Source: a virus. Taken from it: 64,000 nucleotides of DNA. Under the pieces are notes generated by a model, which made no database searches, was not told where the DNA came from, and saw only the letters and a list, made by a program, of their open reading frames with translations. Made by a program: the position numbers and the translations under genes. This document shows positions 25,903 through 55,940 of the stretch, one piece after another (position 1 is the first letter of the stretch; each line of letters opens with the position of its first letter). The stretch lies in IMG/VR virus record IMGVR_UViG_3300023084_000004; one strand, written 5' to 3'.

Positions 25903-25949
25903 TCGGTTCACTCTCCCCAGATAGGCGATTTAAATTGTAATTACTTTTC

Positions 25950-38406: not shown

Positions 38407-38829
38407 TTAAACAACGTCATCTTCCTCAGATTGACCAAGTGTAAATGATAATGTTGAATGTACAGCTAAATCTGTGTCAGCTTTGATTTCTAACGTATCA
38501 CCACTCTTTAAGAATTGGCCATTCAAAGGAATTGGAATTGTTTGATAACCTGGCACAGGCAATAATCTCAAGATATAAAACTCTTGGTTGACATCGTCCC
38601 TATGTACTCTTACGTCAATATTGACTGTGTTTGCGGTTGTGTTACACAAAATTAGAGGTGAAATAACTTCACCAACACCTGGTTCAACAGTTGTTGATCC
38701 ACCAAAAACTAGTTCAGGAACCTCGTACTGAGGAACTTCAATAATGACTTGCCAGTTTGTCGATACTACTAAATTGACGGCAACTGGTTTTGCGTCAGGT
38801 GCCTGAGAAGTTGTAATTGTTGTTGGCAT
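38407..38829 (-). CDS. Hypothetical structural protein, partner of the 3379-aa protein
   Basis: Directly downstream with GGA SD; beta-rich. Confidence 0.65.
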   Translation of the reverse strand: MPTTITTSQAPDAKPVAVNLVVSTNWQVIIEVPQYEVPELVFGGSTTVEPGVGEVISPLILCNTTANTVNIDVRVHRDDVNQEFYILRLLPVPGYQTIPIPLNGQFLKSGDTLEIKADTDLAVHSTLSFTLGQSEEDDVV

Positions 38830-38848: not shown

Positions 38849-41800
38849 TTAAATTACTGCTCTACTGTTTGAAGCTCTTCTTGCAAGTTTTCTTACAGAA
38901 GATGTAAATGGTCGTCCTTCAATTCGACCTGTTCTACCATTAATTCTTAGACCTCTTGCGAAGTATTGGTTATTCAATTCATCCGCACCAGACCATCTAA
39001 TTCTACCACCGTCTTCACTTAGTACCGAAGCTACCGCTGATATAGCAGAACCTAAGTTTCTAAAGTTTAGAGGTAGAGCATTTCTGTTAACACCCGCGGA
39101 TGCACCATTAAACTGGTGAGCAATAGATTCTACCAAGGAACCAAATACTAGAGTTTCAGGTCTTAAGATATTATCTTTTAGACAATCATTAAATAATCCT
39201 TCAACCATTAAGTCATGCTGTGAGTTAGGTGATAGATTATCAACAATATAATCTCTCATTCTATCCCAAGCACCAGTGAAGGCATCTAATAACGATGTAT
39301 CATTAGGTCCATCTAGTACCCATGTTGTTCCGTTCCAGTAATATATATCTCCAGCGAAATGATTAGTTGCATAGTTAGATGCAACAATATATGCATGGTT
39401 TGGTTTTTGTCCTGTTATTGCCGCAAGATCTGAAAGTTGTTCAACACTTCCTTGATACTTATAAGCCGCATTAGATGGATTAAATACTGGGAATGTGTGC
39501 TGTCCTTTCTGATCGAAGAATGCTGCAGTAAATGATCTTGTTGATTTTTGAGATCCTGCTACGTCTCCATATACTGGTGTACCTGCAGAAGCATCTTCAT
39601 ATCTGAAGTCGTTTGTAATAGCTTCAAGCAAGTTGTAACCATCTCTTCTTGTTAATCCAATATCGATAAAGTCGTATGTGCTATTAACAAATCTTACAAC
39701 ATCAAATGCAAGATCGAGTTTATTTTGCTCAAGAATAAATTGAGCACTTGTGAATTGATCTCCTGAGTATGTATAATCTGGTTCTTCTTTAGCAGGTAAG
39801 TACTTAGTATCTTTAAAGAATTGTGTCTTATAGAAAATATTAGCAAGATTTTGTACTTTTTCGGCTTCAACTTGAGTTCCAAGTTCGCCAAGAGCAACCT
39901 GATTTGGATATTTTCCTACAACAATATCTTTACAAATTACACCGAGTTGCTTATAAGCTTTTGCTGTTGCAACTCTTTGATCTTCAGGGACTCTATATTG
40001 ATTATTCCAGAAGTAGAAATCTGCATTCCATCTTGATGCGATATTACCGCCATAGTTCAAGTCATAAGAGAATGCGTCAAGTAAGTAACCTACGTCTCTT
40101 CTACACTTATCTCTGTTATAATCAAGAACATCAAATTCTGTATTGATATATTCAATCATATCGTTAGCAAGAATTTCAAGATTATCATCAATCTGTTGAG
40201 CTGCACCTATAACGTCTGAAGCAACCCAAGCTGTTGTAGGTTGTACTAAACCAGGCATTGAATCAAGTGAATTTGCTCTGATAACATCTTCTACAATTCC
40301 GATTAAGTCAGAAACTCTTGCACCTTCAACCGCAGTTGCTGGTGTACCTGTTGTATCAAATGGTGTATCAGTATATGTTGTATTTGCAATACTTCCATCT
40401 TCTTGAACAACCGCATCAAGAACTGTTCCTAAGTAGTTGTATACATCAGCAGTTTGAGTTCTTGTATCTGCAGGTAATACGCTCACACCCCAATCGAAGT
40501 AAATTTGAGCTGCGATACGTGTTGCATAGTTTCCGTCATATTGAATATCATGAGAGATAGCATCGATTAAGTATCCAATGTCTCTTCTACACCTTTGTTC
40601 AGGGAAACTCAATCCGTTATGAACATTAGAAATATAATTTAAGATCGAAGCGGCTAGGTTAACGCTTTCATCTTCAATCAATTCTTTAGATGCTACGTAT
40701 GGAGTTCTTTGCCATGTTTGTACAGGATCTACGCGATCTGGGAATGAAACGTAAGATCCTTTATCTACGACATTGGCAACAATCTTAACTAGGTTTTGAG
40801 CTCTTATTGCGATTTCTGGGCTACCAGCAATTTGTGTCTGATCTTGTTTTTCTATATTACCATCAATTTGTAATATTGCATTAGGTATTGCACTTACAAA
40901 AGTATGTGCACCTGTGTATTGTTTTGCATATCCAGTATTTACAGTAAATGTATTTGAAGTTACTGCTGTAATTTCAAGAGGTTTCTTAAATGCAGGATCG
41001 GTTCTTCTTGGATGAGAAATTTGAACAGCAGGTGAACCACACTCGAATGTTATACCTTCTTCTGCGATAATAATATGATCGCCAACACTCATATAATGAG
41101 GTGAAGTTGTTGTAATAACAGTTTCTCCAGTGGTTGGACTATAAGTTGCTGTACTTACACCAAACTTACGCTTAACCCAATCTGTTTGATCTACATCAAG
41201 TCTTCTTACACATTGCTCAACAAGATTTGATACATGAGTAAATGCTTTCTTACTTGCTTCTCTCTGGAATACTGGTAGTGTACTTACTGCATTATCAAAA
41301 TACATATAAGCGGCATTTAATGTTGCTGCATTACCACCGTATTGAATATCATGTGATACTGCATCAAGAACATATCCAATATCTCTTCTACATTTATCTT
41401 CATCATAAGGAAGAATTTCAAAGAATCTTGCAAGATAAGTAAGAATTCCATCTTGAATACCTGATATTGAAGTAACGAGTTGAGCATAAGCTGTTTGATA
41501 TTCTGCTTGATAACCTGCAAGATTTGGAAGTTCTTCAGCTGGTAAACTATCAATACCATCATTATCTATGGCATCAGAAACTAATTCAAACATTTGTCTA
41601 ACTTTTAATGCCATTGCAGCACCTGCATTACCAGATGCGAATGATTGATTTTCAGCATTACCAGTAGTTTTTGTTACTGCAGAATCTTGAACAACTAATT
41701 CAGCAACCGTTGCGATATGAGCAAATGCTGCAGCGGTTGGAGCTCTTTGATCTTCAGGTAATATTGCTACTGCGTTTTCGAAGTAGATATTAGCATTCCA

Positions 41801-44800
41801 TCTTGAAGCTACATTACCACCGTGCATTGCATCCCAAGTTACTGAATCAATAATATATCCAAGATCTCTTTCACACTTAGCTGAATCATAAACTAGTGAA
41901 CCATAGTTTTGTGCAATCCAAGCAGTCATTTCAGCTTGCATGAATGCTTTGTTATTTTGTAATTGTTCTCTTGCGTTGATGCCATTAGCACCAGCTTGTG
42001 AAGCAGCTCCAAATGATATTGTATCAGGAGTATTATTACCCATAATATCAATAATTTCATTAAATGCTGCTTGTGCTCTTTCTCTTGCACCATCATCAGT
42101 AATCGATCTTACTGCGATGTCTCTAGCGTATTCAACACCTTTAATTGTTTCTGTAAGTTGTTCATTCACAACTAGATTTGTTCCAGCAGTACCTGAACGA
42201 TATGCTAATCCATTAAAGACTGAATTGAAGTTTGAATCTGCTAATACGTCTCTTGCAACTGCTTTAACAATTGTTTCGATATCACGCTTACACTTATCTC
42301 CATCGAAAGTAAAGTATTTGTCTCTTAAGTATGCAATCGTATCGGCAGCAATAAAGTCTTTGTTTAATTGAATTTGCTTACGTGCTTGTGTTCTATTTGA
42401 ATCAACTGTAGGATCAACTTGTGTTGTAGTTAAGTTTTCGTCAGATGCGTCATCTACTACATTAGCAATAATTTCTATAAGATCATGTACCGCAGTACCT
42501 GTTGCCGCGTCAGCCGGTGTTCCAGAAGTATCTTGTGTTGGAACATTATTTGCTGAAGGAGTAATTGAAATTTCTTGTACAACATCGCTTGCAACATCAG
42601 CTAATCTTTGGAATGCAAGTTTTGTAGGTATGCGTTGCTCTTCAGGAAGAATATTAATTAAAGTACGTAAACCTGAAACGTTTGCTGTCTTGTATGTTTC
42701 AGCAGTATCTCTAAATTGTCCTGAAACTTCAATTGGAAGAACGTTAATTGATCTGAGTTGTTCTAAATCAGCAGAAATTTCATTGTCTAATCTAAAGTAG
42801 TATTTTGCTGCTTCGATAGTATTAGCATTACCACCATAGATAATATCTTTAGAAACGGCGTCAATAATAAGACCAACATCTCTTCTACATGTCGCTTTAT
42901 CGTATGGTAAACCTTTCCATTCTCTTCTTACATAACCGATAACGTCATCTTGAAGAACCTCTGTTTGTCCATCAATCTTATTAACTGCATCAGCATAACC
43001 AGTTTCAATAATTGGTTCTACATATTCTGGTAACCAAGTAAGTGTATTGTCTCTAATAACGTTAGTTGTAATTTCTACTAATTCTTTAACTTTATTAGCA
43101 ACTGCAATACCTGCATCTGTTTGTGAAACATCTTGTGTTGCAGCATTACCGCTTGTTACTGAAACTGCTTGGTCTCTAACAATTTGATAACATACTTCTG
43201 CAATGTGTGCCCATGTTTTAGCAGTTGGTAAAATTTGATCACCTGGTAATACAGAAATTGCATTATCATAATACATTCTAGCGAAGTTTACAGAAGCTGC
43301 GTTTGAACCATGTTGGATATCCCAAGAAACTGCGTCGATCAAGAATCCTGTATCTCTTTCACACTTAGCAACATCATATACAAGATTTGGCCAAGTTTGA
43401 GCAATATATGCTGTAACTTCAGCTGCTAGGAATGCTTTGTTTAATTGTAATGCAGTTCTTGCGGTTGTATGATTTGCGCTTACAGTGTTTGTTCCAAATG
43501 TAAGAACATCAGCATTACCAGTACCGTTATTTAGAATATCAATTATTTCATCGAATGCTGCATTTGCTCTTGTTAAAGAATTTCCTGTTAATTCATTTGC
43601 AATTTCTGATTTTAAGAAATTAATCGAACCAGTAGTTTGTGGTAATTGATCTGAAACAACTAGATTAATACTTCCTGAACCAAGTTGATATGAAAGACCT
43701 GCAAACACTGCGTTATAATTTGAACCTGTTGCAACATCTCTTCGTATTGCATCAAGAATTAAACCTGTATCTCTTGAACATTTTGCTCCATCAAATACAA
43801 AATAATTATCATCTAAATAAGCCATGATTTCGTCTTGAATCATGTTCCTATTGATTTGTAATTGCTCTGCAGCTCTTTGTCCGTCTGAATTATATGTTAC
43901 TTTAGCAACAGCATGATTTGCTGCAGATACAAATGTATGAGCACCACCAGCACCAACTCCAACATTTACTGTAATATCATCACCAGCAACAGTTGTAATT
44001 CTCATTGGAGTATTATAGTTGCCGTCACCTTTTCTTGGGTATGAATGTTCTGTTGCATTACCATCAGAAGCACAAGTAAATGTTAAACTGTATGGAGCAA
44101 ATTCAATATAATCATCAACTAATAAATTATGTCCTGGAATCGTTACGACACTGATTCCAGTTACTGGATCGTATGTAGCTGTTGTTGGTGTATAATATTG
44201 TAAGTAATTTGAAGGATCTGTCCAAATGATAGGATCTCCAACAATACAATCGTCATCTGCTCTTACAAAGGTATGTGCACCAGTATAACCGTTAGCATCT
44301 CCAACATTCATCGTAATTGTTGTAGAAGTAATTCCTGTAATTTTTACAGGTGTTTTATACGCTGGATCTGTAGGTCTTGGATGAACGATTTCAATACTAT
44401 TACATTCAAATACAACACTCTCTGGTTTAATTTCTACATAATCACCAACTACAAATGAGTGTTGCCCGATTGTTGCTTCAAATTCTCCTGTGATAGGATC
44501 GTATGTAGCAGTTGATAATGAGAATGTTGGAATATATGTTGCTGCTTTAACACAATCAGCATCAGCAGCTACAAAGGTATGTGCACCAGTATAACCACCG
44601 GCATCTCCAGCATTAAATTCAATTGTGGTTGAGGTAACCTTATTAATTGTTAAAGGAGTCCTGTAGGCAGGATCTGTGGGTCTTGGATGCACAATATTAA
44701 CAGAAGGAGAACCACACTGCCAAGTTAAACTTAAATCATCTAATACAATTTTATCACCTTGTTTAAAGTCGTGAGCACCAATTGTAAGACTTGTAATACC

Positions 44801-47800
44801 AGTTAATGGATCGTATGTTCCATTAGTTGGAGTATATGATTTACCTTTACTTTCTACAATATCAATAAGTTGTCTAAATGACTCGTCAGATCTATGAATT
44901 GATGCAGCATCAGTAATAGTGTTATTAGCAATAAGTTGTTTTAATTCGTTAAAGGCACCAACTGTTTCTGGTCTTTCGTTATACCAGTTTCTTAATGTTC
45001 CTTGATTACCTTGTCTGTATGCAACACCTGCTTGTTTAGCATTAAAGTTTGTACCAGTAATAATATCTCTTTCGATTGCTGGTAAAATGTGCTGAATAAC
45101 ATCTCTTTCACATTTTTCTGAATCATATCTGAAGTAGTTATAATCAATATAACCCATCATATGATCTTGAATAAAGTTTTTGTTATTCTGTAATTGAATT
45201 CGTGCGTTACGCTTACTTGAAATAATATTTGTATTATCAGAGAATCTTATTTTAGAACTTGCAAGAATAACTGAATTTACGTCTGCACTTACAAAAGTAT
45301 GTGGAGCAACATAAGCCGCAGGACCAACATTAATTGTAATTGATGTTGGAGTTGTTGCTTCAATTTCTAGAGGACTTCTGTAAGCAGGATCTCCAACTCT
45401 TGGATGCGATAGTGTTGTGACTGTACCATCACCCTCACAAGAGAATGAAATACTTCCAGGCTTGAGAATTACTTTATCTCCAACACTTAATCCATGTCTA
45501 CCAGCAAGTGTAAGTACAGCAATACCAGTTTCTGCATCGTATGTTCCATCTATAGGAGTCCATGCAACATCAGAAGCTGCAGTTATTGCATCTTTATAAG
45601 CACTCACAAATGTATGAGCACCTGTATAACCATTTGCGTCACCTGCTTGAACAGTTACTGTTGTTGCTGTTTTATTAAGAACAACGTATGGCTTGTTATA
45701 GAAAGGATCGGTTGTTCTTGGGTGAGAAATTGTTACACCACTACCACAACTAAATGTCATTCCATTTGGTTTGATAAAGAATGAATCACCAACTGCAAAA
45801 TTATGTGAACCAATTGTTACTGTCATAATTCCAGTTACTGGATCGTATGTCGCATCTGTAGGTGTATAAGAAGCATCTACTTGTGCAAATCTTCCACCAT
45901 CACCTTCAAGTATTCCAATAATTTCGTCAAATGCTTCATCAGATCTTGCAGAACCAATATAGCTGTTTGCGTCAAGTATTTCGTTTGTTTGATCTTTAAG
46001 TCTTCGATATGCAGAGATTGTTTCATCTCTTTGTTTATCAATAACTTTCTTAGCAGCATTCATGTAATAAGCATTACCTGCAGTTACTGCATTATAGTTT
46101 GTTTCTAATAACATATCGTACTTAACGGCAGGTAAAATATATTCTGTAACATCTCTTCTACATTTTACACTATCGTAAGCAAAGAATTCGTCGTTATTGT
46201 CAATCCAATCTGTAAGTTCATCTTGGATAAATGATCTGTTGTCTTGTAATAATTCTCTAGCTGCTGTTCTTTCAACTTTACCAGAATCAACCCATGTAAT
46301 TGGGTTCATATTTTCTTCACCATATTGAAGAACATTATAGAGTTCTTGCATTGAAGTATTTGCGCGATTAATAATTTCAGTTGAACCTTCAAAAATAGAT
46401 TCAACGCGCGATTGCAAGTATTGGTTAGCGCCAAGAGTTTCTTCTAATTGATCTCCTGGAACAATGTATGAAATTGGTGAGCGATAAGTAATACCAGCTA
46501 ATCTACCCCAATAATTAGAATCAAGTGCAATATCGTATCCTAATCCATCAACAATAATTCTACTATCTCTTTCACATTTACCTGCATCATAACCAGTATA
46601 ACCTAATCCACCATTTGCTGAATTTGCAGTGAGATATTCAACCATATCATCAACGATATCGTCATAAGCATTCTCGATAGTGTCAGCAAATACTGTGTTA
46701 CCAAATATAGTTGCGTTAGTTGATTTAGGTGCGAAGAACTGAGTTGTACCTTTTGCTCTCATTGAGATGTCACCGAACTGAGTACCTGAGTTGTTCAGTG
46801 TCATTTGTCCACCATTCAATGCATAGAATGCGCATCGTACGAAAATGGATAGAGAACCGATACCGTTAACACCAGCACCGTCTCGAGCAACATAACCCAT
46901 ACCGTTTTGAGAACGAGGTGTGAAACCGAAACATAATACGTAAGTATATAATGAATCTGGGTCTAATACTCTTCTATCTGCAAGTAGACATCCACCACCT
47001 CTTCCAACTAATCTGTTAGGGAAGTCGTCGATACCAATTGCGTCGATTGTAGCAGTACCACCAGATTCAGATGTAATAGTATCTCCAACCGCAAAACCTT
47101 TGTTGTTCTTTAAGTTTCTTACGTGAATCTTATTATCAGAAGCAAGTTCAGAAACATAAGATACGAAACCAACTGCACCAGATGAGAATGTAATCTCATC
47201 ATCAACTGCAAATCCGCTAACAGCTGACACATTACTTAATGTAAACTCTCTACCTAAATCGTCGAGTGTACCTTTACTGTTATATGGGTTTAGAGGTGGT
47301 TCAACATCTACCCTGTTAAAGTTAGATAATTGAGAACTGTCTCTGATGTATGGTGAACGGAGTAACTTAGCACCAGGTCTGTAAGCAACGGCGAATCCAC
47401 CTTCTGGATAATCGAAGTTATCGATTTTCCAGTTCATATAAGCAAAACCTTGAACGTAGTTACCAGAACCAACTAACCAACAGTTATTATTTTCATAACC
47501 AGGAAGTGCTTCAATAACTGTAGCATATTGTCCAGCTTTAGAAGTAACCGCACAATCATCTGGAATTGCAAGTTCACCTTTTGTATAATAAGTACCTTGT
47601 CCTACTTCAATATGAACTGCGTTGTTTAATGAGTTTCTATCATAAGAACCACCTGCTTTTTCTAAAGCAAGTTCACATGCTCTTTCAAGTGTACGAACTG
47701 GTTGTAATTCAGTACCTGGATATTCGTCATTACCTTTAGCAGCATCTACAGAAACTTTTAATGCTGATTGAGTAGATTTTGATACTTCGTTGAATAATTG

Positions 47801-48988
47801 TTTGTAAGAAATTTGTTCTGTTTCACCAGTTTTTTCATTTCGAATTGCAAAGTAACTTTCTTCATCAATAGGAGCTTCAAACTCTTTAGTAAGCTCCATA
47901 TCGAAGTCAACAAGTTGAGATGAATCAATTACACCACCTGAGAATGTTGATTGTGAAAGTGTACCATTATCGAATGATGAATTTGTTGAAGATAATCCAT
48001 CAGCTGAAGAACTGGTAATCGTTAAATCGTTAGCAACCACTCCGTCCATTGTACCAGCAAATGAGGTATTTGAAATGGATCCATTTTGGAATACGGAATA
48101 ATCAATTGTTGAATTTGTAAGTACTACATTATTGCCTGTACCATCATTAAATTCTGATTGAGTAATAACTGTATTGTTAACTGTACCATCATTAAATTCT
48201 GAAGTTGTGATAACAGTATTACTAATATTTCCTTCATAGAAATTAGAAGCACTAATATCTGTTGTTGTAATATCTGAATTTGAAAGAGATACATCAACAC
48301 CAACAACAGTAGACATTGTACCGCTATTGAATTCTGAACTTGAAATGACTGTATTATTAACTGTACCATCATTAAATTCTGATTGAGTAATGACAATATT
48401 GTTTGCTGTAGAATTTGAGATTGTGCCATCAGTAAATGATGAATTAGCAAGTCTAATATTATCACCATCAACATTAGACATATCGCCATTTTGGAATGTT
48501 GAACTATCGATGGTTGAATTATTGAGTACTACGTTGTTACCAGTACCATCATTAAATTCTGATTGAGTAATGACAATATTATTTGCGGTACCATCTGAGA
48601 AATCAGAATTGGTAATTGTCATTGTATTTGCTGTTGTAGCAAATATCGTTCCAAGCTGGAACGAAGAGTAAGACATTACAATGTTGTTAGCGTCAGAGTT
48701 TGTTATTTCGGTTCTATCAATACTACCACGAACAAAATCTGTATCTTCAATATCTGAATTGTCAATAATAACATTATCAAGTCTTGAATCTGACATGACA
48801 ACACCGGAGATAGTACCTCCAGTGATGGTGATTCTTGAAAAAATCTCGTATTGAATGGCTTCGACTAATTCTTTACGAGTTATGTTTTTGGTACCATCGT
48901 CACCTTGAACAAGGTTAACAATAACGAACAGGTCTTCCGACCTGGTATTTGCACCTGTAATTGTACCTAGTTCTGAAATTTTTGACAT
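38849..48988 (-). CDS. Giant multidomain virion protein (3379 aa): pentapeptide solenoid, beta-helix-like region, 11-12 CxRD helical repeats, six beta-sandwich repeats
   Basis: KISEL N-terminus; strict 5-residue periodicity at aa ~55-365; repeated [YF]DxxKCxRD and TYDPxTG...HPR...AHTF motifs. Confidence 0.8.
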   Translation of the reverse strand: MSKISELGTITGANTRSEDLFVIVNLVQGDDGTKNITRKELVEAIQYEIFSRITITGGTISGVVMSDSRLDNVIIDNSDIEDTDFVRGSIDRTEITNSDANNIVMSYSSFQLGTIFATTANTMTITNSDFSDGTANNIVITQSEFNDGTGNNVVLNNSTIDSSTFQNGDMSNVDGDNIRLANSSFTDGTISNSTANNIVITQSEFNDGTVNNTVISSSEFNSGTMSTVVGVDVSLSNSDITTTDISASNFYEGNISNTVITTSEFNDGTVNNTVITQSEFNDGTGNNVVLTNSTIDYSVFQNGSISNTSFAGTMDGVVANDLTITSSSADGLSSTNSSFDNGTLSQSTFSGGVIDSSQLVDFDMELTKEFEAPIDEESYFAIRNEKTGETEQISYKQLFNEVSKSTQSALKVSVDAAKGNDEYPGTELQPVRTLERACELALEKAGGSYDRNSLNNAVHIEVGQGTYYTKGELAIPDDCAVTSKAGQYATVIEALPGYENNNCWLVGSGNYVQGFAYMNWKIDNFDYPEGGFAVAYRPGAKLLRSPYIRDSSQLSNFNRVDVEPPLNPYNSKGTLDDLGREFTLSNVSAVSGFAVDDEITFSSGAVGFVSYVSELASDNKIHVRNLKNNKGFAVGDTITSESGGTATIDAIGIDDFPNRLVGRGGGCLLADRRVLDPDSLYTYVLCFGFTPRSQNGMGYVARDGAGVNGIGSLSIFVRCAFYALNGGQMTLNNSGTQFGDISMRAKGTTQFFAPKSTNATIFGNTVFADTIENAYDDIVDDMVEYLTANSANGGLGYTGYDAGKCERDSRIIVDGLGYDIALDSNYWGRLAGITYRSPISYIVPGDQLEETLGANQYLQSRVESIFEGSTEIINRANTSMQELYNVLQYGEENMNPITWVDSGKVERTAARELLQDNRSFIQDELTDWIDNNDEFFAYDSVKCRRDVTEYILPAVKYDMLLETNYNAVTAGNAYYMNAAKKVIDKQRDETISAYRRLKDQTNEILDANSYIGSARSDEAFDEIIGILEGDGGRFAQVDASYTPTDATYDPVTGIMTVTIGSHNFAVGDSFFIKPNGMTFSCGSGVTISHPRTTDPFYNKPYVVLNKTATTVTVQAGDANGYTGAHTFVSAYKDAITAASDVAWTPIDGTYDAETGIAVLTLAGRHGLSVGDKVILKPGSISFSCEGDGTVTTLSHPRVGDPAYRSPLEIEATTPTSITINVGPAAYVAPHTFVSADVNSVILASSKIRFSDNTNIISSKRNARIQLQNNKNFIQDHMMGYIDYNYFRYDSEKCERDVIQHILPAIERDIITGTNFNAKQAGVAYRQGNQGTLRNWYNERPETVGAFNELKQLIANNTITDAASIHRSDESFRQLIDIVESKGKSYTPTNGTYDPLTGITSLTIGAHDFKQGDKIVLDDLSLTWQCGSPSVNIVHPRPTDPAYRTPLTINKVTSTTIEFNAGDAGGYTGAHTFVAADADCVKAATYIPTFSLSTATYDPITGEFEATIGQHSFVVGDYVEIKPESVVFECNSIEIVHPRPTDPAYKTPVKITGITSTTITMNVGDANGYTGAHTFVRADDDCIVGDPIIWTDPSNYLQYYTPTTATYDPVTGISVVTIPGHNLLVDDYIEFAPYSLTFTCASDGNATEHSYPRKGDGNYNTPMRITTVAGDDITVNVGVGAGGAHTFVSAANHAVAKVTYNSDGQRAAEQLQINRNMIQDEIMAYLDDNYFVFDGAKCSRDTGLILDAIRRDVATGSNYNAVFAGLSYQLGSGSINLVVSDQLPQTTGSINFLKSEIANELTGNSLTRANAAFDEIIDILNNGTGNADVLTFGTNTVSANHTTARTALQLNKAFLAAEVTAYIAQTWPNLVYDVAKCERDTGFLIDAVSWDIQHGSNAASVNFARMYYDNAISVLPGDQILPTAKTWAHIAEVCYQIVRDQAVSVTSGNAATQDVSQTDAGIAVANKVKELVEITTNVIRDNTLTWLPEYVEPIIETGYADAVNKIDGQTEVLQDDVIGYVRREWKGLPYDKATCRRDVGLIIDAVSKDIIYGGNANTIEAAKYYFRLDNEISADLEQLRSINVLPIEVSGQFRDTAETYKTANVSGLRTLINILPEEQRIPTKLAFQRLADVASDVVQEISITPSANNVPTQDTSGTPADAATGTAVHDLIEIIANVVDDASDENLTTTQVDPTVDSNRTQARKQIQLNKDFIAADTIAYLRDKYFTFDGDKCKRDIETIVKAVARDVLADSNFNSVFNGLAYRSGTAGTNLVVNEQLTETIKGVEYARDIAVRSITDDGARERAQAAFNEIIDIMGNNTPDTISFGAASQAGANGINAREQLQNNKAFMQAEMTAWIAQNYGSLVYDSAKCERDLGYIIDSVTWDAMHGGNVASRWNANIYFENAVAILPEDQRAPTAAAFAHIATVAELVVQDSAVTKTTGNAENQSFASGNAGAAMALKVRQMFELVSDAIDNDGIDSLPAEELPNLAGYQAEYQTAYAQLVTSISGIQDGILTYLARFFEILPYDEDKCRRDIGYVLDAVSHDIQYGGNAATLNAAYMYFDNAVSTLPVFQREASKKAFTHVSNLVEQCVRRLDVDQTDWVKRKFGVSTATYSPTTGETVITTTSPHYMSVGDHIIIAEEGITFECGSPAVQISHPRRTDPAFKKPLEITAVTSNTFTVNTGYAKQYTGAHTFVSAIPNAILQIDGNIEKQDQTQIAGSPEIAIRAQNLVKIVANVVDKGSYVSFPDRVDPVQTWQRTPYVASKELIEDESVNLAASILNYISNVHNGLSFPEQRCRRDIGYLIDAISHDIQYDGNYATRIAAQIYFDWGVSVLPADTRTQTADVYNYLGTVLDAVVQEDGSIANTTYTDTPFDTTGTPATAVEGARVSDLIGIVEDVIRANSLDSMPGLVQPTTAWVASDVIGAAQQIDDNLEILANDMIEYINTEFDVLDYNRDKCRRDVGYLLDAFSYDLNYGGNIASRWNADFYFWNNQYRVPEDQRVATAKAYKQLGVICKDIVVGKYPNQVALGELGTQVEAEKVQNLANIFYKTQFFKDTKYLPAKEEPDYTYSGDQFTSAQFILEQNKLDLAFDVVRFVNSTYDFIDIGLTRRDGYNLLEAITNDFRYEDASAGTPVYGDVAGSQKSTRSFTAAFFDQKGQHTFPVFNPSNAAYKYQGSVEQLSDLAAITGQKPNHAYIVASNYATNHFAGDIYYWNGTTWVLDGPNDTSLLDAFTGAWDRMRDYIVDNLSPNSQHDLMVEGLFNDCLKDNILRPETLVFGSLVESIAHQFNGASAGVNRNALPLNFRNLGSAISAVASVLSEDGGRIRWSGADELNNQYFARGLRINGRTGRIEGRPFTSSVRKLARRASNSRAVI
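39500..46700 (-). repeat. CxRD helical repeats, 11 with Cys and one degenerate
   Basis: Cys codons at 46574, 46160, 45110, 43778, 43361, 42887, 42290, 41873, 41390, 40589 and 40103; Cys-less LTRRDG copy near 39641-39655. Confidence 0.88.
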
Positions 48989-49012
48989 TGATTAGTCTTC
49001 CCTGTTTCTTTT

Positions 49013-49020
49013 TATTTATT
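49013..49020 (-). promoter_or_regulatory. Late promoter variant AATAAATA
   Basis: Intergenic, upstream of the 3379-aa gene. Confidence 0.6.
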
Positions 49021-49027
49021 AGACCAA

Positions 49028-50567: not shown

Positions 50568-53500
50568 CTAGGTTAATGCAATACCGCGATAATCTCTTAA
50601 TGTTGGTGCATTATGCACATTAGGAGATAATAAATCTATTCTAATAGCAAATCTTCTGAATCCTGTCCAGTTGGTTGATGCGTCATTAGAATATGTTAAA
50701 ACTCCATTTCCATCTTTGTTATCATCAGATACTCTAAACTTAAACTCTCTATAATCATGCAGATTAGTATTACTTGAGAATACACCAACACCTTCAAACA
50801 ATTCGAGCTCAATCCAATCTACAGAATCAAAAGGCTCACTATCAAAAGAACTTTGTGGTCTAATATAAGCCTTAATATCAGATCCTGATGGACGATATCC
50901 TGTTACAATTAAGTGTAAATCTTCAGCATCAAGATCAGCAGCTAATTCAATAGATTTTGAAATATATTTAGAAGAAGTTGCTGCGTCATTTGTAATCTTA
51001 TATGCATAAGCTAATAGTTTTGATGTTTCAATATCTACAAATGGAGTTGATGTTACATTAGCATCATTTTCCATTTCAATTACGATATCAAAAGCTTTTG
51101 AACGATTTGGGTCGTTTGATTTACTATAAACAATTACACCTTTTTGACTAAAATGATTATTATCATTAAATGACATTGGCATACTATAAGTTACATTTAC
51201 ATCAGAAGGTGGAACAAAGGTTCCTCTTACTAATGTTCTTGATGTTGAATCAACAGCCTTATTAATAAGCGGTTGAATATAACTAAGATTAATATTATCG
51301 ATACTTACTACGTTTGCTTGTTTACCACTATCTAATCCTAATATATTTGCACCCGCCGCAAATACTGAACCAGATCTAACTGAGCTTTCTTCTAAATGCA
51401 TTTCATAAGGATTATTAATATTGTAGTATGAAAGTTTACCGATAACTACTGGTGTACCTGTTCCATTACTTACTGCAAAAGGTGCAGGTTTGTCAAGTGT
51501 AAGTGTCGTAGCATTTTCAATACTTACAATTTGGAAAATATCTGATTGAGTATTACCTGCATTCGCGATAAGAATATAATCTTCTTCAGCATACGTATCA
51601 TCAAGCGCAGTACCTGTCATCGTACTTGTATTAATAGGTACGTTAACGGTAGCACTTGTTGAACCTTGAAGTGATTTAGTTTGATAAATTGTTTCACCAG
51701 GAATAAATCTTCCAGTAATATTATCAACTGTTAAAAATTCATGATCGTTATTTGTCATTGTGACAGAACCAGTTGCAGTGTTGAAGTTATGTCTACGTAA
51801 AGTAAATTTCATATCTTCATCCTGGTATGACTTCCAAGCACTATTATTGGTAGAGCTGAATAATACCCCATCTCCCCAATCCTGTACAATGGCAGCCCCC
51901 TGAGTGACTCCTGGTGTCAAATCTGTGCCGCCTACCTTAGAAGTATATACTAAGTAGTTAGGATCTGATGCATCTGGTTGAACTACAATTGCATATTCTT
52001 TTTCAACATCAAGTCTTACAGGTGTATCAAACGCAAATGTAGTTGCGATCGAAGCATCGTCAGATACTGAGTTTGTTAAATCAGTTGGTAATTTGTGTAC
52101 AACTGAGAATGGAACGATTTGATTTGAAGGATAACCATTTACAACTTCTCTTACCTGTAATGACACACCATTAGTATCACTTACACGTTTGAAGTATACA
52201 TCAACCTCTGATAAGTAAACAGAGTTTGAACCTTGTCCCATACCTTTCTTAATAAAGAATGTTTGAGCAATTGGGTCACGACCTCTTGGTCTTCTTGCAA
52301 CGTTTCTTGTAGTTGTCGTTGTATTAACATCAAATTCTGGTTGACGAGTTGATGTTGTTAAACTTGTTTTTTCAACGCTAAAGTTGTATGCTCTATAAGT
52401 AACAAACCCTCTTGATGTTGAACCACTTTCAATACTATTATATAAATTAACATCAGCAATTTCTAATACTCTGTCACCAACAAAGAATGTTTCTGGTGGT
52501 AAAGCAAATACTGCTCTTAATACACCATTTGCATCTGTTGTAACAGCGTCACCTTTAGAACCATTACGTTTAATTGATCCTGCAGTATTATCAGGTGAAC
52601 CTGGAATTACGTGAGCATTAACGTCAACACCATCAAAGAAGAAATAATGTCGTACATTTGGACGTAAGCCAGACATATAAACTTTAATGTCACGGCCGGC
52701 CATGTATGGTTTGAAACTAAAATTAGAAACAAAGTCTCCAACAAATTGTTCTTGTGTTGAACCTTGTGATACACTAATTTCGCTTGTTCGAGTTGTTATA
52801 GTCGTAACTTCTGTTCCGCTACGACCGCGACCACCCATACGTCTTCCCCAACTCCAAGCATCTTCTCTAAATTCAGTTGTTTGAGTTGTGTCAGTGAGTG
52901 GTAAAAATTCTTGAATGTTATCAACAAATTCCTCGAAAGCTGTTGACATATCAATGTCAATAGTAACTGGATTTGTTGTTGTATCGTATGCAGCATCATA
53001 AGGTGGAGAAATAACTCCATCACCTTGATATTTGTAGAAGTTACTTACTGCATTACGGAAACCTGAAGCATAAGGTTGATTAATGATTTCAACATTTGCA
53101 TTACGACCGAGTGTTCCAACTTTAGCATCTGATGTTGTTGGGAAGATCGAAGCTCCAGTACTTGTTTTATATTTAAGATCCATAGAATAAGTTTTAACTG
53201 CAGGTGTTAAAATCTTTTGATTAAATGGAACAGCTGCATTAAAAGATGGATCTTGAATATTTGCTAATGAGAGATCATTAAATGGATCAACTACAAAACC
53301 GTTTTTAAATCTGTTTAAACCATTTTCATCTAAAACATTTAGATTTTGTGTTTCTGATTCTAATTGGTTTAATGAAATATAATAAGCCATGTTATCAATC
53401 TTCTTCTCTAAAGAATGAAGATCTTTCATGGTATAATTTTTAATTCCTGTAGAACGTGCTTTAATCGCGTATTCTCTTTTCTTCGCAGTATTAGCAGCTG

Positions 53501-55940
53501 CAGAACTGAGTGCAGGGAAACCAGGAATATTAACTTCAGCAACAACAAGTTTATCTGTTTCTACTCTAGGAGGTGAAGGCTCTTTAGCTTCTTTACCTTT
53601 TATTAAACTTATTTCTCCATAAGAATCACATACGATTGCATCGATTCTTGACAAATAATATTCAATATCTGTTGTTGCACTTGCTGCTGAGGCAGGCACT
53701 AATGGAGAACCTAGATCTGAAAAACTAATTGGATATGCACCAACTGCGGTTGTTACCGTACCAGCAGAAGCTGGAGTAGTATCGTTATAATCTACTACAG
53801 AATCTTTATTGATATATGCTCTAAAGTCAAAGCATTCTCTTAGATTAAATCTATTACCTACAGAAGAAGTATATACTGGAATATCATATTTGTCTAATGA
53901 GTTAGGATAACTGTTTATTGTAAAATAAAATTCTCCAGAAGATGTGCTTACTTGGAAAACTTTTAATTTAATAGTTAAAACTCCATTTGCAGGAAGTGGT
54001 CTTCCTTGGATATATTCCATATATGAAATATCATAGTAAGTATCTTTCTGATTATTTTTAAGTACAAAACTGTTTGTATAATCATCACCGCTTGCATCTT
54101 CTATACTTGTAATAGCAAATACATCAGGAAAACCTAAACTGTATTTAGTTGTCGAACTTGTAAAGTTAACTTTAACGTATGGTTCTGCAACTGTTTTATT
54201 ATAGGGATCAACACCTGCAATCGAACCAATTAATCTTTTATTATAGAATAATGTAACGTTTGTTGCTGAACTTGCAGCAGGATCTAAATTAATTGTGAGT
54301 TGACTATTATTAAGTGCAAGTGAAGTACTTAAAACTGGAATTACTGTATTTGTATTATCAACAACAAGAATATCATTTTGGTGAACATCAAAATCTTCAC
54401 CAGGATTTGCTGTAAGTGTTATAACATTACCTGTTTGTGTTGCCGCAATTTGATCTCTTACTGGAATCAATGTATCTGTTGTTCCAAATACACTTCTCAT
54501 ACCAGTATTAAAGAGTAAAGATTTTCTACCTGCTTCTCTTATTCTTGGATCAACTTCAATATAACCAGAGCCATCGCTGAGTCTTGCAATATTTGATATT
54601 GTATTTGATCCTGTTAAAGTAACTGCTGTTAAATAAACTCTTGTAGGTGTAACGTTAATTGCAATAGCGGTACCAATATTACTTCCACCACTATTTTGCA
54701 CATTAACAGGTGTCCAATCAATATCTACTGTTCCATTAATAGAAACAACTGAAAGATAATTTCCATAATCAAATGAAACTGATTGAGCATTTTGAGTTTC
54801 TGTTGAACTAATCTGATCAATTGTAAATGAACGTTCACCAGAATTTTCTACTCTATAACCTTTTACGTATGCTGTACCTGTTCCTAATAAAACATTTACA
54901 TTACCATCTCTATCATCTGTAGATAATGGAAATTGTTTTAAAACGTAGTTACCTGATTCTTCGTAAGTGCGTCTAGCAAGTTCTTCACCTAATACATTAT
55001 ATTGAGAAACGTCTCTTAAAGTAATAGCGTTTCCGTTTTGGTAACGAATAAGTGTAAAGAAATCAGCGTCAACATCGGCATCTGCTGTATCTAAAACAAC
55101 AAGATTTGGAATTAGTTTTAATCTATCAGCACCAGGCGCATTTTCGTTACTTGAACCGTTTGCATTATCATATAAACTATTATCTTGTAACGCATTAGTA
55201 GTTGATTCTGTTACTGAATAACCTACAGATACTGCATCAGGCGTATTATTATATTTGGATACAACTAATATTTGATCTTGAGCAAATAAGAAATGACCTT
55301 TTTGGAAAATAACACCAGGAGCGGATTGAATACCAAAAGATCTTCCTACATGATTTGCAAGAGATGTTACAGCTAAACCTGGAATGCTTTGTGTTTCTGA
55401 AGCAAATACGGTATTTGTAACACCAACTTTATATTTGTAAAGTGTGACGGTTAATGGCTCACCAGCTCTAAATTCTGTATCTGATGTAGCTGAATTAACA
55501 GGTGTTAAATAATTAATATAAAAAGTATTTAGATCTGGTGGTCTTGTTTCAAAACCTCTTGAAGCAGAAATAATTTGAGCTCTTAATCCAGAGTTTGCAC
55601 CAGTAACTTCGTAAACATAATCAAGTTCTAATTCTTGACCGAGAATAGTTTCTGTAACTCTTCTGCTAATATAAGACGTTGGATCGAACCCTGTAACGTC
55701 AATAAGTTTTACGAATCTAAGATCATCAAGATTTGTAAAAGAACAACCTTTAACAATACTACCTTCTTTAAAGATATTATCGCCAAATTGCTCCACTTGA
55801 TTTTGGAGCATTGATTGTAATTGTGTTAATTCCCTTGCCTGTACAGCAAACCCAGGTTTAAAGAGCACACGATAGTATTGATTCTCGAGATCAAAATCGT
55901 CGAAATATGGTGATTGGTTTAGGTTTGTGTTAATAGGCAT
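50568..55940 (-). CDS. DUF4815/VrlC-like large virion structural protein
   Basis: PYFDDF...YYRVLFKPGFAVQARELTQLQSMLQNQ, APGADRLK, ELARRTYEESGNY, NRFKNGFVVDPF, DPIAQTFF. Confidence 0.85.
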   Translation of the reverse strand: MPINTNLNQSPYFDDFDLENQYYRVLFKPGFAVQARELTQLQSMLQNQVEQFGDNIFKEGSIVKGCSFTNLDDLRFVKLIDVTGFDPTSYISRRVTETILGQELELDYVYEVTGANSGLRAQIISASRGFETRPPDLNTFYINYLTPVNSATSDTEFRAGEPLTVTLYKYKVGVTNTVFASETQSIPGLAVTSLANHVGRSFGIQSAPGVIFQKGHFLFAQDQILVVSKYNNTPDAVSVGYSVTESTTNALQDNSLYDNANGSSNENAPGADRLKLIPNLVVLDTADADVDADFFTLIRYQNGNAITLRDVSQYNVLGEELARRTYEESGNYVLKQFPLSTDDRDGNVNVLLGTGTAYVKGYRVENSGERSFTIDQISSTETQNAQSVSFDYGNYLSVVSINGTVDIDWTPVNVQNSGGSNIGTAIAINVTPTRVYLTAVTLTGSNTISNIARLSDGSGYIEVDPRIREAGRKSLLFNTGMRSVFGTTDTLIPVRDQIAATQTGNVITLTANPGEDFDVHQNDILVVDNTNTVIPVLSTSLALNNSQLTINLDPAASSATNVTLFYNKRLIGSIAGVDPYNKTVAEPYVKVNFTSSTTKYSLGFPDVFAITSIEDASGDDYTNSFVLKNNQKDTYYDISYMEYIQGRPLPANGVLTIKLKVFQVSTSSGEFYFTINSYPNSLDKYDIPVYTSSVGNRFNLRECFDFRAYINKDSVVDYNDTTPASAGTVTTAVGAYPISFSDLGSPLVPASAASATTDIEYYLSRIDAIVCDSYGEISLIKGKEAKEPSPPRVETDKLVVAEVNIPGFPALSSAAANTAKKREYAIKARSTGIKNYTMKDLHSLEKKIDNMAYYISLNQLESETQNLNVLDENGLNRFKNGFVVDPFNDLSLANIQDPSFNAAVPFNQKILTPAVKTYSMDLKYKTSTGASIFPTTSDAKVGTLGRNANVEIINQPYASGFRNAVSNFYKYQGDGVISPPYDAAYDTTTNPVTIDIDMSTAFEEFVDNIQEFLPLTDTTQTTEFREDAWSWGRRMGGRGRSGTEVTTITTRTSEISVSQGSTQEQFVGDFVSNFSFKPYMAGRDIKVYMSGLRPNVRHYFFFDGVDVNAHVIPGSPDNTAGSIKRNGSKGDAVTTDANGVLRAVFALPPETFFVGDRVLEIADVNLYNSIESGSTSRGFVTYRAYNFSVEKTSLTTSTRQPEFDVNTTTTTRNVARRPRGRDPIAQTFFIKKGMGQGSNSVYLSEVDVYFKRVSDTNGVSLQVREVVNGYPSNQIVPFSVVHKLPTDLTNSVSDDASIATTFAFDTPVRLDVEKEYAIVVQPDASDPNYLVYTSKVGGTDLTPGVTQGAAIVQDWGDGVLFSSTNNSAWKSYQDEDMKFTLRRHNFNTATGSVTMTNNDHEFLTVDNITGRFIPGETIYQTKSLQGSTSATVNVPINTSTMTGTALDDTYAEEDYILIANAGNTQSDIFQIVSIENATTLTLDKPAPFAVSNGTGTPVVIGKLSYYNINNPYEMHLEESSVRSGSVFAAGANILGLDSGKQANVVSIDNINLSYIQPLINKAVDSTSRTLVRGTFVPPSDVNVTYSMPMSFNDNNHFSQKGVIVYSKSNDPNRSKAFDIVIEMENDANVTSTPFVDIETSKLLAYAYKITNDAATSSKYISKSIELAADLDAEDLHLIVTGYRPSGSDIKAYIRPQSSFDSEPFDSVDWIELELFEGVGVFSSNTNLHDYREFKFRVSDDNKDGNGVLTYSNDASTNWTGFRRFAIRIDLLSPNVHNAPTLRDYRGIALT

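Follow-up and report, generated by a model that had tools for sequence, protein, structure and literature searches.

A giant open reading frame with eleven C-x-R-D repeats

The 64,000-nucleotide stretch of DNA analyzed here (the window) is part of the IMG/VR virus record IMGVR_UViG_3300023084_000004, which is 137 kb long and estimated to be 64% complete. On its minus strand, a single uninterrupted open reading frame (ORF) from 38849 to 48988 encodes a giant protein of 3379 amino acids, and this one frame carries all copies of a helical repeat marked by the motif Cys-x-Arg-Asp (C-x-R-D). We describe these repeats, their probable kinship with the phycobiliproteins, and what they may contribute to a phage virion. 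The motif occurs 11 times (positions in Table 1), taking up 11 of the 29 cysteines of the protein, against an expectation of 0.098 occurrences from composition and a mean of 0.096, with a maximum of 2, in 2000 shuffles. The repeats around it are homologous to one another, 116 to 201 amino acids long, with their motifs in register and with 20 to 46% identity to repeat 8, and three subtypes (A, B, and C) can be told apart among the 11 copies. Six residues are invariant across all of them, namely, the C, R, and D of the motif itself, D(+11), N(+17), and Y(+27). A twelfth, degenerate repeat has T-R-R-D at amino acid 3113, where the others have C-x-R-D.

An earlier note on this DNA, made from the letters alone, had reported 11 repeats with an invariant Cys-x-Arg-Asp at positions 39500 to 46700. 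Its count agrees with the 11 motifs in register, and its placement is right, since repeats 1 to 11 span window positions 39764 to 46666; repeat 12 extends the array down to 39449. The strings that it quoted (DKCRRDIGYVLDAVSHDIQYGG, DKCRRDVGYLLDAFSYDLNYGG, AKCERDLGYIIDSVTWDAMHGG, and SINFLKSEIA...RANAAFDEIIDIL) occur as written. When the whole giant protein was searched against Pfam, the sole match was Pentapeptide_4; phmmer gave no match to PDB sequences, and blastn of the repeat region gave none to cultured phages.

Predicted fold of the repeats

Repeat 8 was modeled with AlphaFold2, without templates, from a 142-sequence alignment made of phage repeats only (the window and 80 related viral contigs). 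The model has a predicted local distance difference test score (pLDDT) of 96.2 and a predicted template modeling score (pTM) of 0.91, with helices at residues 2 to 6, 8 to 22, 30 to 50, 54 to 68, 73 to 94, and 118 to 136. As compared with the PDB by Foldseek, about 40 of the 42 rows listed were phycobiliproteins or the bilin domain of ApcE, with a template modeling (TM) score by query of at most 0.71 and a probability mostly of 0.9 to 1.0; the two remaining rows were a prenyl synthase (probability 0.23) and, in last place, myoglobin. An exhaustive VIA search with the same model gave far-red allophycocyanin (8or7_A; Z 12.8, root mean square deviation [rmsd] of 2.1 Å over 112 residues), then phycoerythrin (5aqd_M; Z 12.2) and ApcE (Z 11.2), with photocobilins and heme sensor globins lower at Z 8 to 10 and hemoglobins at 6 to 7. 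Repeat 9, for which a separate model was made (pLDDT 83.5; four helices, about ten strands, and a final helix), produced the identical top ranking, with Z values of 13.8 for allophycocyanin, 13.5 for phycoerythrin, and 12.3 for ApcE. Its match to allophycocyanin covers model residues 1 to 253 and therefore spans the beta insertion of this repeat, and a profile match at amino acids 2694 to 2751 corresponds to profile positions 83 to 144.

For both models, a globin-like core of helices A to H superposes on solved phycobiliproteins, at an rmsd of 2.1 to 2.7 Å, and phycobiliproteins are the best match, as expected from the earlier note, which had taken the repeats for globin-fold phycobiliprotein homologues. 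The superposed part of the phycobiliprotein chains runs from about residue 27 or 41 to the C terminus, and the domain therefore would be the globin core without the X-Y hairpin. No counterpart of that hairpin was found, as the superpositions begin at 27 to 41 and the hhalign alignment described below begins at template column 39; moreover, the repeats are spaced 130 to 160 amino acids apart, and there is therefore no space for an additional hairpin of 30 to 40 amino acids. A search of the ESM Atlas by shape gave nothing over a TM of 0.5. The same resource searched by features returned fungal DUF6532 clusters, whose recognition score was under the useful range, and these were discarded as noise.

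Register of C-x-R-D on the bilin attachment site

CXRD is the covalent bilin site of phycobiliproteins (PMC10151467). For comparison, a reference profile was built from 7 real phycobiliproteins encoded on cyanobacterial plasmids and aligned to the repeat profile by hhalign. The alignment (probability 87.5%, P = 3.6e-6) sets K-C-x-R-D of the repeats on K83-C84-x-R86-D87, with the likeness extending to K-C-x-R-D-x-G-Y on K83-C84-x-R86-D87-x-G89-Y90, and predicts that C-x-R-D lies on helix E at Cys84, Arg86, and Asp87. Its score was 41.3, versus 10.1 for the reversed profile and 7.8 to 20.7 for twenty column shuffles. Profiles of subtypes A, B, and C each align likewise (P = 1e-5 to 1.8e-5) and jointly cover template columns 39 to 162, including the C-terminal helix; that of subtype A runs from the C-x-R-D helix through to the C-terminal helix H of phycobiliproteins, in accordance with a second resemblance that had been noticed at first reading, that of the terminal helix. 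The phycocyanin alpha sequences given in the earlier note were also sound, as a 32-amino-acid version of the first string matches annotated cpcA genes at 78 to 84% identity and the C-terminal EANSY[IL]DYAINAL is found in cpcA. A HMMER search of PDB sequences with the repeat profile gave one phycocyanin chain (E = 0.96), and the local match, of profile positions 23 to 53 on chain residues 73 to 103, falls exactly on the Cys84 region.

Several results weigh against reading the repeats as bilin-binding globins. Pfam PF00502 had no match to the giant protein, even at E ≤ 1, and none in the six frames of the 137-kb record, while a Synechococcus control scored; since the repeats fail this hidden Markov model and lack the X-Y hairpin, they lie outside PF00502 as defined. 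Masking the four motif columns brought the hhalign score down to 20.4 (P = 0.016), with the register unchanged, and one of the 20 column shuffles (20.7) equals that score; the motif itself thus supplies half of the sequence signal. The Foldseek E values for repeat 8 were only about 0.1, and VIA warns that helical proteins can, and helical models often do, reach a Z of about 13 through arrangement alone. The repeats have a B-E loop about 9 residues shorter than that of phycobiliproteins, where this loop lies over the bilin, a point against bilin binding. The lack of a significant HMMER link (none to PF00502, and the phycocyanin chain at E = 0.96), the Foldseek values, the VIA warning, and the masked alignment would all suit a protein of no common ancestry, that is, an unrelated, convergent bundle of five to six helices in which C-x-R-D is coincidental. 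We consider this highly improbable. One and the same register came from the superposition (model residues 1 to 136 on chain residues 41 to 159), the profile-profile alignment, and the HMMER local match; phycobiliproteins outrank other globins for the two modeled repeats and fill nearly the entire Foldseek list; and the final helix of subtype A aligns to the phycobiliprotein C-terminal helix. Since fold, register, and motif concur, the repeats are very probably homologous to the clade of phycobiliproteins and bilin-binding globins. Judged by models and alignments, they are a putative new branch of bilin-binding globins, in a setting without precedent.

Conservation and spread of the domain

Among 487 distinct repeats from 80 related loci, the triad is nearly invariant (C in 479 of 483, R in 481 of 483, and D in 483 of 483), and D(+11) and Y(+27) are kept in 482 of 484 and 474 of 483, respectively. 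When 1.84 billion representative proteins were searched exhaustively with the profile, 1425 scored at E ≤ 0.001, and the best 150 of these are 843 to 6382 amino acids long with 5 to 37 matched stretches each. In the 1553 domains of these 150 representatives, C-x-R-D is intact in 1447 (93%), F, S, or T replaces the Cys in about 5%, and D(+11) and Y(+27) are conserved in 99.5% and 97.7%. Each domain has one conserved Cys and no conserved partner Cys. The profile has no conserved His column, the top share of His being 185 of 482 at one position, and no equivalent of the proximal histidine of heme globins (helix F) was found. Neither was a stand-alone, single-domain form: all of the best 150 representatives are giants, and a search limited to proteins of 63 to 352 amino acids gave only 4, of 220 to 272 amino acids and on contigs of 0.8 to 39 kb where recorded, most of which are probably fragments; this search gave neither a stand-alone homologue from cells nor, at E ≤ 1, any phycobiliprotein.

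In cultured phages, tblastn matches to the array were confined to phages of Synechococcus and Prochlorococcus (293 of 296 records, the other 3 being named "Marine"), in genes annotated as tail fiber, short tail fiber, or structural protein and at an identity to the array of the window giant of only about 25 to 28%. S-PM2 has nine domains in two giant ORFs (five C-x-R-D in p091), S-WAM2 gp224 has six C-x-R-D, and P-HM1 and P-HM2 have four domains each. In P-HM2, the gene annotated as gp7 baseplate wedge has KCARD and KCIRD, the 2 C-x-R-D in PHM2_086. The tail fiber copies of this phage read C-[VI]-D-D (NCVDD and QCIDD) instead, with Asp in place of Arg. The earlier caveat that such repeats may exist unannotated in other marine T4-like phages is thus borne out by S-PM2, P-HM1, P-HM2, and S-WAM2. 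The cyanomyovirus proteins S-PM2 p091, S-WAM2 gp224, and P-HM2 PHM2_086 and PHM2_096 belong to the same domain family and are likewise giant late structural proteins, differing from the window giant in having fewer copies per protein. Their records give fiber or structural labels only, with no annotation found that names a globin or phycobiliprotein kinship, and no publication tying cyanophage structural proteins to globins or phycobiliproteins was found in a search that subscription journals lay outside.

A protein-pattern scan of 185,579 prokaryotic genomes gave no relatives. A DNA-motif scan gave 40 loci, about the number that we estimate to be expected by chance; 18 of the 40 are genuine giant ORFs, carried by low-GC contigs in marine metagenome-assembled genome (MAG) bins of many taxonomic labels, which suggests mis-binned phage contigs with no host signal. 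One bin, "Rhodobacteraceae bacterium Water_Bin34," has three contigs of 49 to 70 kb that differ greatly in coverage (5.7x, 67x, and 88x), each with a giant of 3700 to 4000 amino acids carrying 11 to 12 domains, and three other contigs that carry phage-type ferredoxin-dependent bilin reductases (FDBRs); the bin probably combines several related phage genomes with the bacterium.

The conservation described above can be read in more than one way. The best-conserved positions, D(+11) and Y(+27), are not bilin ligands in phycobiliproteins, and the conserved polar cluster could therefore have another purpose, a point that counts against a pigment. These positions would suit a pigment-free structural module, in which a phycobiliprotein-type globin, taken up in the distant past, came to serve as a rigid helical bead in the building of very long fibers, with C, R, D, D, N, and Y forming a buried polar network for folding or for packing against neighboring domains and no ligand bound. 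The up to 37 matched stretches per protein, standing as fiber building blocks amid beta-barrel spacers, and the persistence of domains whose motif has been replaced (C-[VI]-D-D in P-HM2; Cys exchanged for F, S, or T in about 5%) point in the same direction. We regard a pigment-free module as somewhat unlikely. In phycobiliproteins, the C, R, D triad serves the chromophore and not the fold (PMC10151467), and in the phage repeats it is 93 to 99% kept, versus about 15 to 20% identity elsewhere, which packing alone hardly explains. In addition, a lone, unpaired, near-invariant Cys in each extracellular domain is unusual for a structural role.

Another ligand in the cleft, such as heme, a metal ion, or a host surface molecule, would turn the array into a multivalent receptor-binding or sensing surface. 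The next-best structures are globin sensors that bind heme or nothing (globin-coupled sensors, RsbR, and pXO2-61; Z 8 to 10.8), and the invariant Asp, Asn, and Tyr that are specific to this family suggest a site remodeled relative to phycobiliproteins. However, no profile column has an invariant His that could act as a proximal heme ligand, every one of the closest structures binds bilin, and the bilin-attachment triad is the sole motif in common with them. Cys-Arg-Asp is not known as a sugar- or metal-binding signature, and we consider such a ligand improbable.

Phage and virion context

The giant ORF matches phrog_701, 5342, and 4527 (virion structural, tail fiber, and short tail fiber proteins; E of about 1e-104) and lies in a late structural gene block, where the flanking genes belong to baseplate wedge, fiber connector, and tail fiber families. 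The sequence AATAAATA upstream of its start codon resembles the T4 late promoter, TATAAATA, and from this resemblance we infer late expression of the giant gene. By its families and neighbors, the giant ORF is a predicted baseplate- or tail-fiber-type protein of an uncultured marine T4-like myovirus, and the P-HM2 domains, being located in the gene annotated as gp7 baseplate wedge and in a tail fiber gene, also point to a virion location. For the major capsid protein, the nearest counterparts are in Sinorhizobium phages phiN3 and phiM12 (72.8%) and Methylophilales phage Melnitz; for the gp6-like baseplate wedge protein, they are in Caulobacter, Sinorhizobium, Xanthomonas, and Pelagibacter phages. 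Since psbA was not found in the 137-kb record or in 22 related contigs, the phage is not a typical cyanomyovirus.

This setting also bears on the suggestion, made at first reading, that the repeats might mimic phycobilisome subunits in the cell, which found no support. It was rejected because the late structural block and the fiber and baseplate families place the protein elsewhere and because the domains have no X-Y hairpin for pairing with host subunits.

Genes for bilin synthesis and attachment

Adjacent heme oxygenase and FDBR genes are present in two relatives of the window phage: G001, a contig of 170 kb (77% complete) whose giant is about 59% identical, and G005, whose giant is about 55% identical. 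The two genes overlap or nearly abut (L086:1447-2802 in G001 and L085:1492-2744 in G005), and the cassette lies about 62 to 64 kb upstream of the giant gene in both. By coordinates, neither the window's own contig nor the other 20 related contigs reach the syntenic position, and the cassette is therefore present in 2 of 2 informative contigs. FDBR and the domain also share a contig in two loci from the DNA-motif scan, G034:C57 and the 194-kb, cyanophage-like G035:C1, so that FDBR accompanies the domain in four related contigs; heme oxygenase was sought in two of them and found adjacent in both. The FDBR is of the phage type known from two-gene cassettes with hemO, its best cultured match being that of Pelagibacter phage Mosig (35.5%, versus 28% for cyanophage pcyA). 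Eleven contigs with a phage-type FDBR were searched for the domain and none was seen, none of these contigs extending the approximately 60 kb needed. Among cultured phages, the domain was found only in cyanophages, whose hosts make bilins.

Some further features of these loci can be recorded here. A class-3 lipase gene diverges from the cassette in G001 (L086:2870-3550), and an ORF of 159 amino acids without a family comes after the reductase. G034:C57 is a 335-kb, low-GC contig from a MAG labeled Neomarinimicrobiota, with the FDBR at 51 kb and domain giants in three ORFs, at 80 to 83, 253, and 265 kb, two of which have duplicates on contig C77; the 335-kb contig could be one very large phage genome or else a chimeric assembly. 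In S-WAM2, a CpeT-like bilin lyase gene (L090:4100-4624) lies about 1.3 kb upstream of the gene for the 4759-amino-acid C-x-R-D "short tail fiber," with tRNA genes and HNH endonuclease genes in between. In Mosig, a cultured SAR11 myophage (MT647606, 35644-44285), ferrochelatase, four 2OG-Fe(II) oxygenase genes, heme oxygenase, and FDBR stand beside neck genes.

The inventory of these genes likewise holds points that tell against a bilin on the array. Heme oxygenase, FDBR, CpeT, and PF00502 were not found in the 137-kb record (64% complete), so that the lack of a lyase or bilin gene, first remarked on for the window, extends to the whole record. Four relatives have no CpeT or CpeS gene, E/F-type lyases not having been searched for. 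Mosig has heme oxygenase, FDBR, and ferrochelatase but no detectable domain, and P-SSM2, which is reported to have pebS and pcyA (PMC2984593), gave no match to the domain with a profile, a DNA signature, or a query derived from P-HM2. In these phages at least, the genes therefore serve some other use, and the bilin acceptor of Mosig is something other than a C-x-R-D globin domain. That phages with bilin genes may be without the domain, and that no lyase was found, would also be in keeping with the pigment-free module.

Beta modules and other features of the locus

The globin repeats share the giant protein with six modules of about 90 amino acids of the form YDPxTG...HPR...HTFVSA, with invariant Y, G, H, C, P, D, H, and F. 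Five of them sit between globin repeats 2 and 3 and between repeats 3 and 4, with repeat 3 inside their span; by profile and model, the remaining one interrupts the globin of repeat 9 between helices G and H. The module occurs in 535 copies in related loci and has no significant Pfam or PDB match by sequence. As modeled, it is a small beta-barrel, for which VIA gave the FCCH domain of ubiquitin E1 (Z 7.9), the phi92 endosialidase (Z 7.2), and further phage tailspike and tail protein domains (Z 6 to 7). Its invariant His, Cys, Asp, and His residues might coordinate a metal.

At the N terminus, the pentapeptide-like run (window 47879 to 48820) reads NSxFxDGT.... The approximately 375 amino acids that follow it (window 46667 to 47791; amino acids 400 to 775 searched) and the C-terminal 200 amino acids gave no significant match to PDB sequences or Pfam. 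Directly downstream of the giant gene, an ORF of 140 amino acids (window 38407 to 38829, minus strand) has no PHROG family and could encode a fiber chaperone or assembly factor. The window has two other giant structural ORFs on the minus strand, one of 1790 amino acids at 50568 to 55940 (phrog_358 and phrog_877, function unknown; E = 4e-277) and one of 3440 amino acids at 15589 to 25911, with tail fiber families at its ends only; the globin domain is absent from both.

Table 1. Predicted features of the giant ORF and its upstream region (window coordinates; aa, amino acids)
Feature	Position	Strand	Basis
Giant ORF, baseplate/tail-fiber-type virion protein	38849..48988	-	Open frame; PHROG matches; neighbors
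Late-promoter-like AATAAATA and purine-rich ribosome-binding stretch, upstream of ATG	48995..49025	-	Sequence
N-terminal pentapeptide-like repeats, aa 57-370	47879..48820	-	Pfam Pentapeptide_4, E 1.4e-12, above gathering score
Globin repeat 1, aa 775-905, Cys805, most divergent copy	46274..46666	-	Alignment; profile, E 8e-27
Globin repeat 2, aa 912-1040, Cys943, subtype A	45869..46255	-	Alignment, profile
Globin repeat 3, aa 1262-1388, Cys1293, subtype A	44825..45205	-	Alignment, profile
Globin repeat 4, aa 1706-1835, Cys1737, subtype A; C-terminal end ...RANAAFDEIIDIL	43484..43873	-	Alignment, profile
Globin repeat 5, aa 1845-1995, Cys1876, subtype B	43004..43456	-	Alignment, profile
Globin repeat 6, aa 2000-2200, Cys2034, subtype C, insertion of ~40 aa past helix F	42389..42991	-	Alignment, profile
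Globin repeat 7, aa 2203-2331, Cys2233, subtype A	41996..42382	-	Alignment, profile
Globin repeat 8, aa 2340-2492, Cys2372, subtype B, modeled	41513..41971	-	AlphaFold2, structural matches
Globin repeat 9, aa 2497-2751, Cys2533, subtype C, beta-barrel in G-H loop, modeled	40736..41500	-	AlphaFold2, VIA, profile
Globin repeat 10, aa 2762-2920, Cys2800, subtype C	40229..40705	-	Alignment, profile
Globin repeat 11, aa 2925-3075, Cys2962, subtype C	39764..40216	-	Alignment, profile
Degenerate repeat 12, aa 3078-3180, T-R-R-D	39449..39757	-	In-register alignment; missed by repeat profile
Five beta modules of ~90 aa, aa 1042-1133, 1146-1238, 1387-1478, 1492-1580, and 1598-1690	43919..45865	-	Invariant residues; 535 copies in related loci
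Sixth beta module, aa 2612-2703, inside globin repeat 9	40880..41155	-	Model; VIA matches
C-terminal ~200 aa, without recognized family	38852..39448	-	PDB-sequence and Pfam searches

A possible bilin-binding array

By models and alignments, the core of the giant protein (amino acids 775 to 3075) is very probably a string of 11 globin-fold domains, with Cys-x-Arg-Asp on helix E and beta-barrels between them. We propose that, late in infection, each domain would take a linear tetrapyrrole into its helix-E cleft and bind it through a thioether to the conserved Cys, while its propionates and pyrrole nitrogens would be held, as they are in phycobiliproteins, by the Arg and Asp. Since no lyase gene turned up, attachment most probably would be self-catalyzed, as for globins BBAG-1 and BBAG-3. 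The bilin could come from a phage cassette of heme oxygenase and FDBR, as seen in the relatives, or from the host. In the assembled fiber, each chain would thus have about a dozen chromophores. By our arithmetic, some 100 chromophores on a particle would absorb only about 0.02 at 1e12 particles per ml, too little for a color to have been noticed by eye. We give covalent bilin binding by the phage domains an even chance, judging from sequence, models, and analogy. Its support is circumstantial and consists of the near-invariant triad, the bilin genes of relatives, and the agreement, in very few phages, between the presence of the domain and light-dependent adsorption. The retention of the triad while the rest of the sequence drifted, together with the lone conserved Cys, argues for a bilin, as would a bilin supply that goes along with the domain.

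More speculatively, the pigment could render the fiber light responsive, with light gating adsorption. Adsorption requires light in phages S-PM2, P-HM1, and P-HM2 and proceeds in the dark in P-SSM2 and the podovirus P-SSP7; the mechanism was stated to be unknown, with light-sensitive tail fibers named as one possibility (PMC6628666). The domain is present in S-PM2 (9 copies), P-HM1 (4), and P-HM2 (4) and absent from P-SSM2 and P-SSP7. This correlation comprises five phages from four lineages (one-sided Fisher exact P = 0.1), which again speaks for caution; it is a lead and not evidence, and it suggests that the array could be a virion photoreceptor. A bilin-loaded array acting as a virus-borne photoreceptor, in which light alters the conformation of the fiber or baseplate protein and so permits adsorption, seems to us quite unlikely.

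Comparison with known bilin-binding globins

With the phycobiliproteins, the phage domains have in common the helix A to H core and the motif, and the G-H loop insertion of repeat 9 has a parallel in the phycoerythrin beta of the comparison alignment, which has an insertion there too. Phycobiliproteins, unlike the phage domains, match PF00502, have the X-Y hairpin that builds the alpha-beta monomer, and have a longer B-E loop; identity between the two groups is about 15 to 20%, and the invariant D(+11), N(+17), and Y(+27) are additions of the phage family. Whereas phycobiliproteins are antenna subunits of about 170 amino acids, the phage domains are tandem parts of a predicted virion protein of 3379. 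The bilin domain of ApcE (Z 11.2 to 12.3) is similarly a phycobiliprotein-type domain within a large multidomain protein. ApcE attaches its bilin autocatalytically, and it has one such domain followed by linker repeats, is located in the phycobilisome core, and has its attachment Cys elsewhere in the sequence.

Photoglobins and photocobilins, which are linked to B12 photoreceptors (8j2w and 8j2y), are also globin-fold bilin binders, scoring below the phycobiliproteins (Z 9.7 to 10.1) and serving light sensing rather than light harvesting. The photoglobin/BBAG-2 lineage is without CXRD, and BBAG-2 binds biliverdin (PMC10151467). BBAG-1 and BBAG-3 are phycobiliprotein paralogues outside the antenna that have CXRD and lyase-free attachment, in genomes with heme oxygenase and FDBR (PMC10151467; Rockwell, Martin, and Lagarias, 2023). 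They resemble the phage domains, by description, in having CXRD in a phycobiliprotein-like globin, and two relatives of the window phage have heme oxygenase and FDBR; however, they are single-domain cellular proteins clustered with FDBR, whereas the phage arrays are fused and lie about 30 to 60 kb from FDBR.

Significance

Two forms of phycobiliprotein-type globins have been known, namely, antenna subunits and, from 2023 on, the cellular BBAGs, whose role is unknown. Tandem arrays in phage baseplate and fiber proteins, in about 1400 representative proteins, are a new setting for this fold, and they make two puzzles testable. The first is the presence of bilin genes in phages, even where hosts are without a phycobilisome: the purpose of phage hemO-FDBR cassettes has been called "still enigmatic" (PMC11480375) and the advantage of phage bilin genes "unclear" (PMC2984593), and the domains are a candidate acceptor. 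The second is the light-only adsorption of several cyanomyoviruses, independent of host photosynthesis. The cultured carriers S-PM2, P-HM1, and P-HM2, with P-SSM2 as a natural negative, make testing simple. If the array proved to be pigment free, it would still show that an antenna-type fold was recruited in ancient times as a building block of fibers. If bilin loading and light gating were true, the heme oxygenase-FDBR cassettes of uncultured marine phages would gain a phage-encoded acceptor, and the light-dependent adsorption of S-PM2, P-HM1, and P-HM2, independent of host photosynthesis, would be accounted for.

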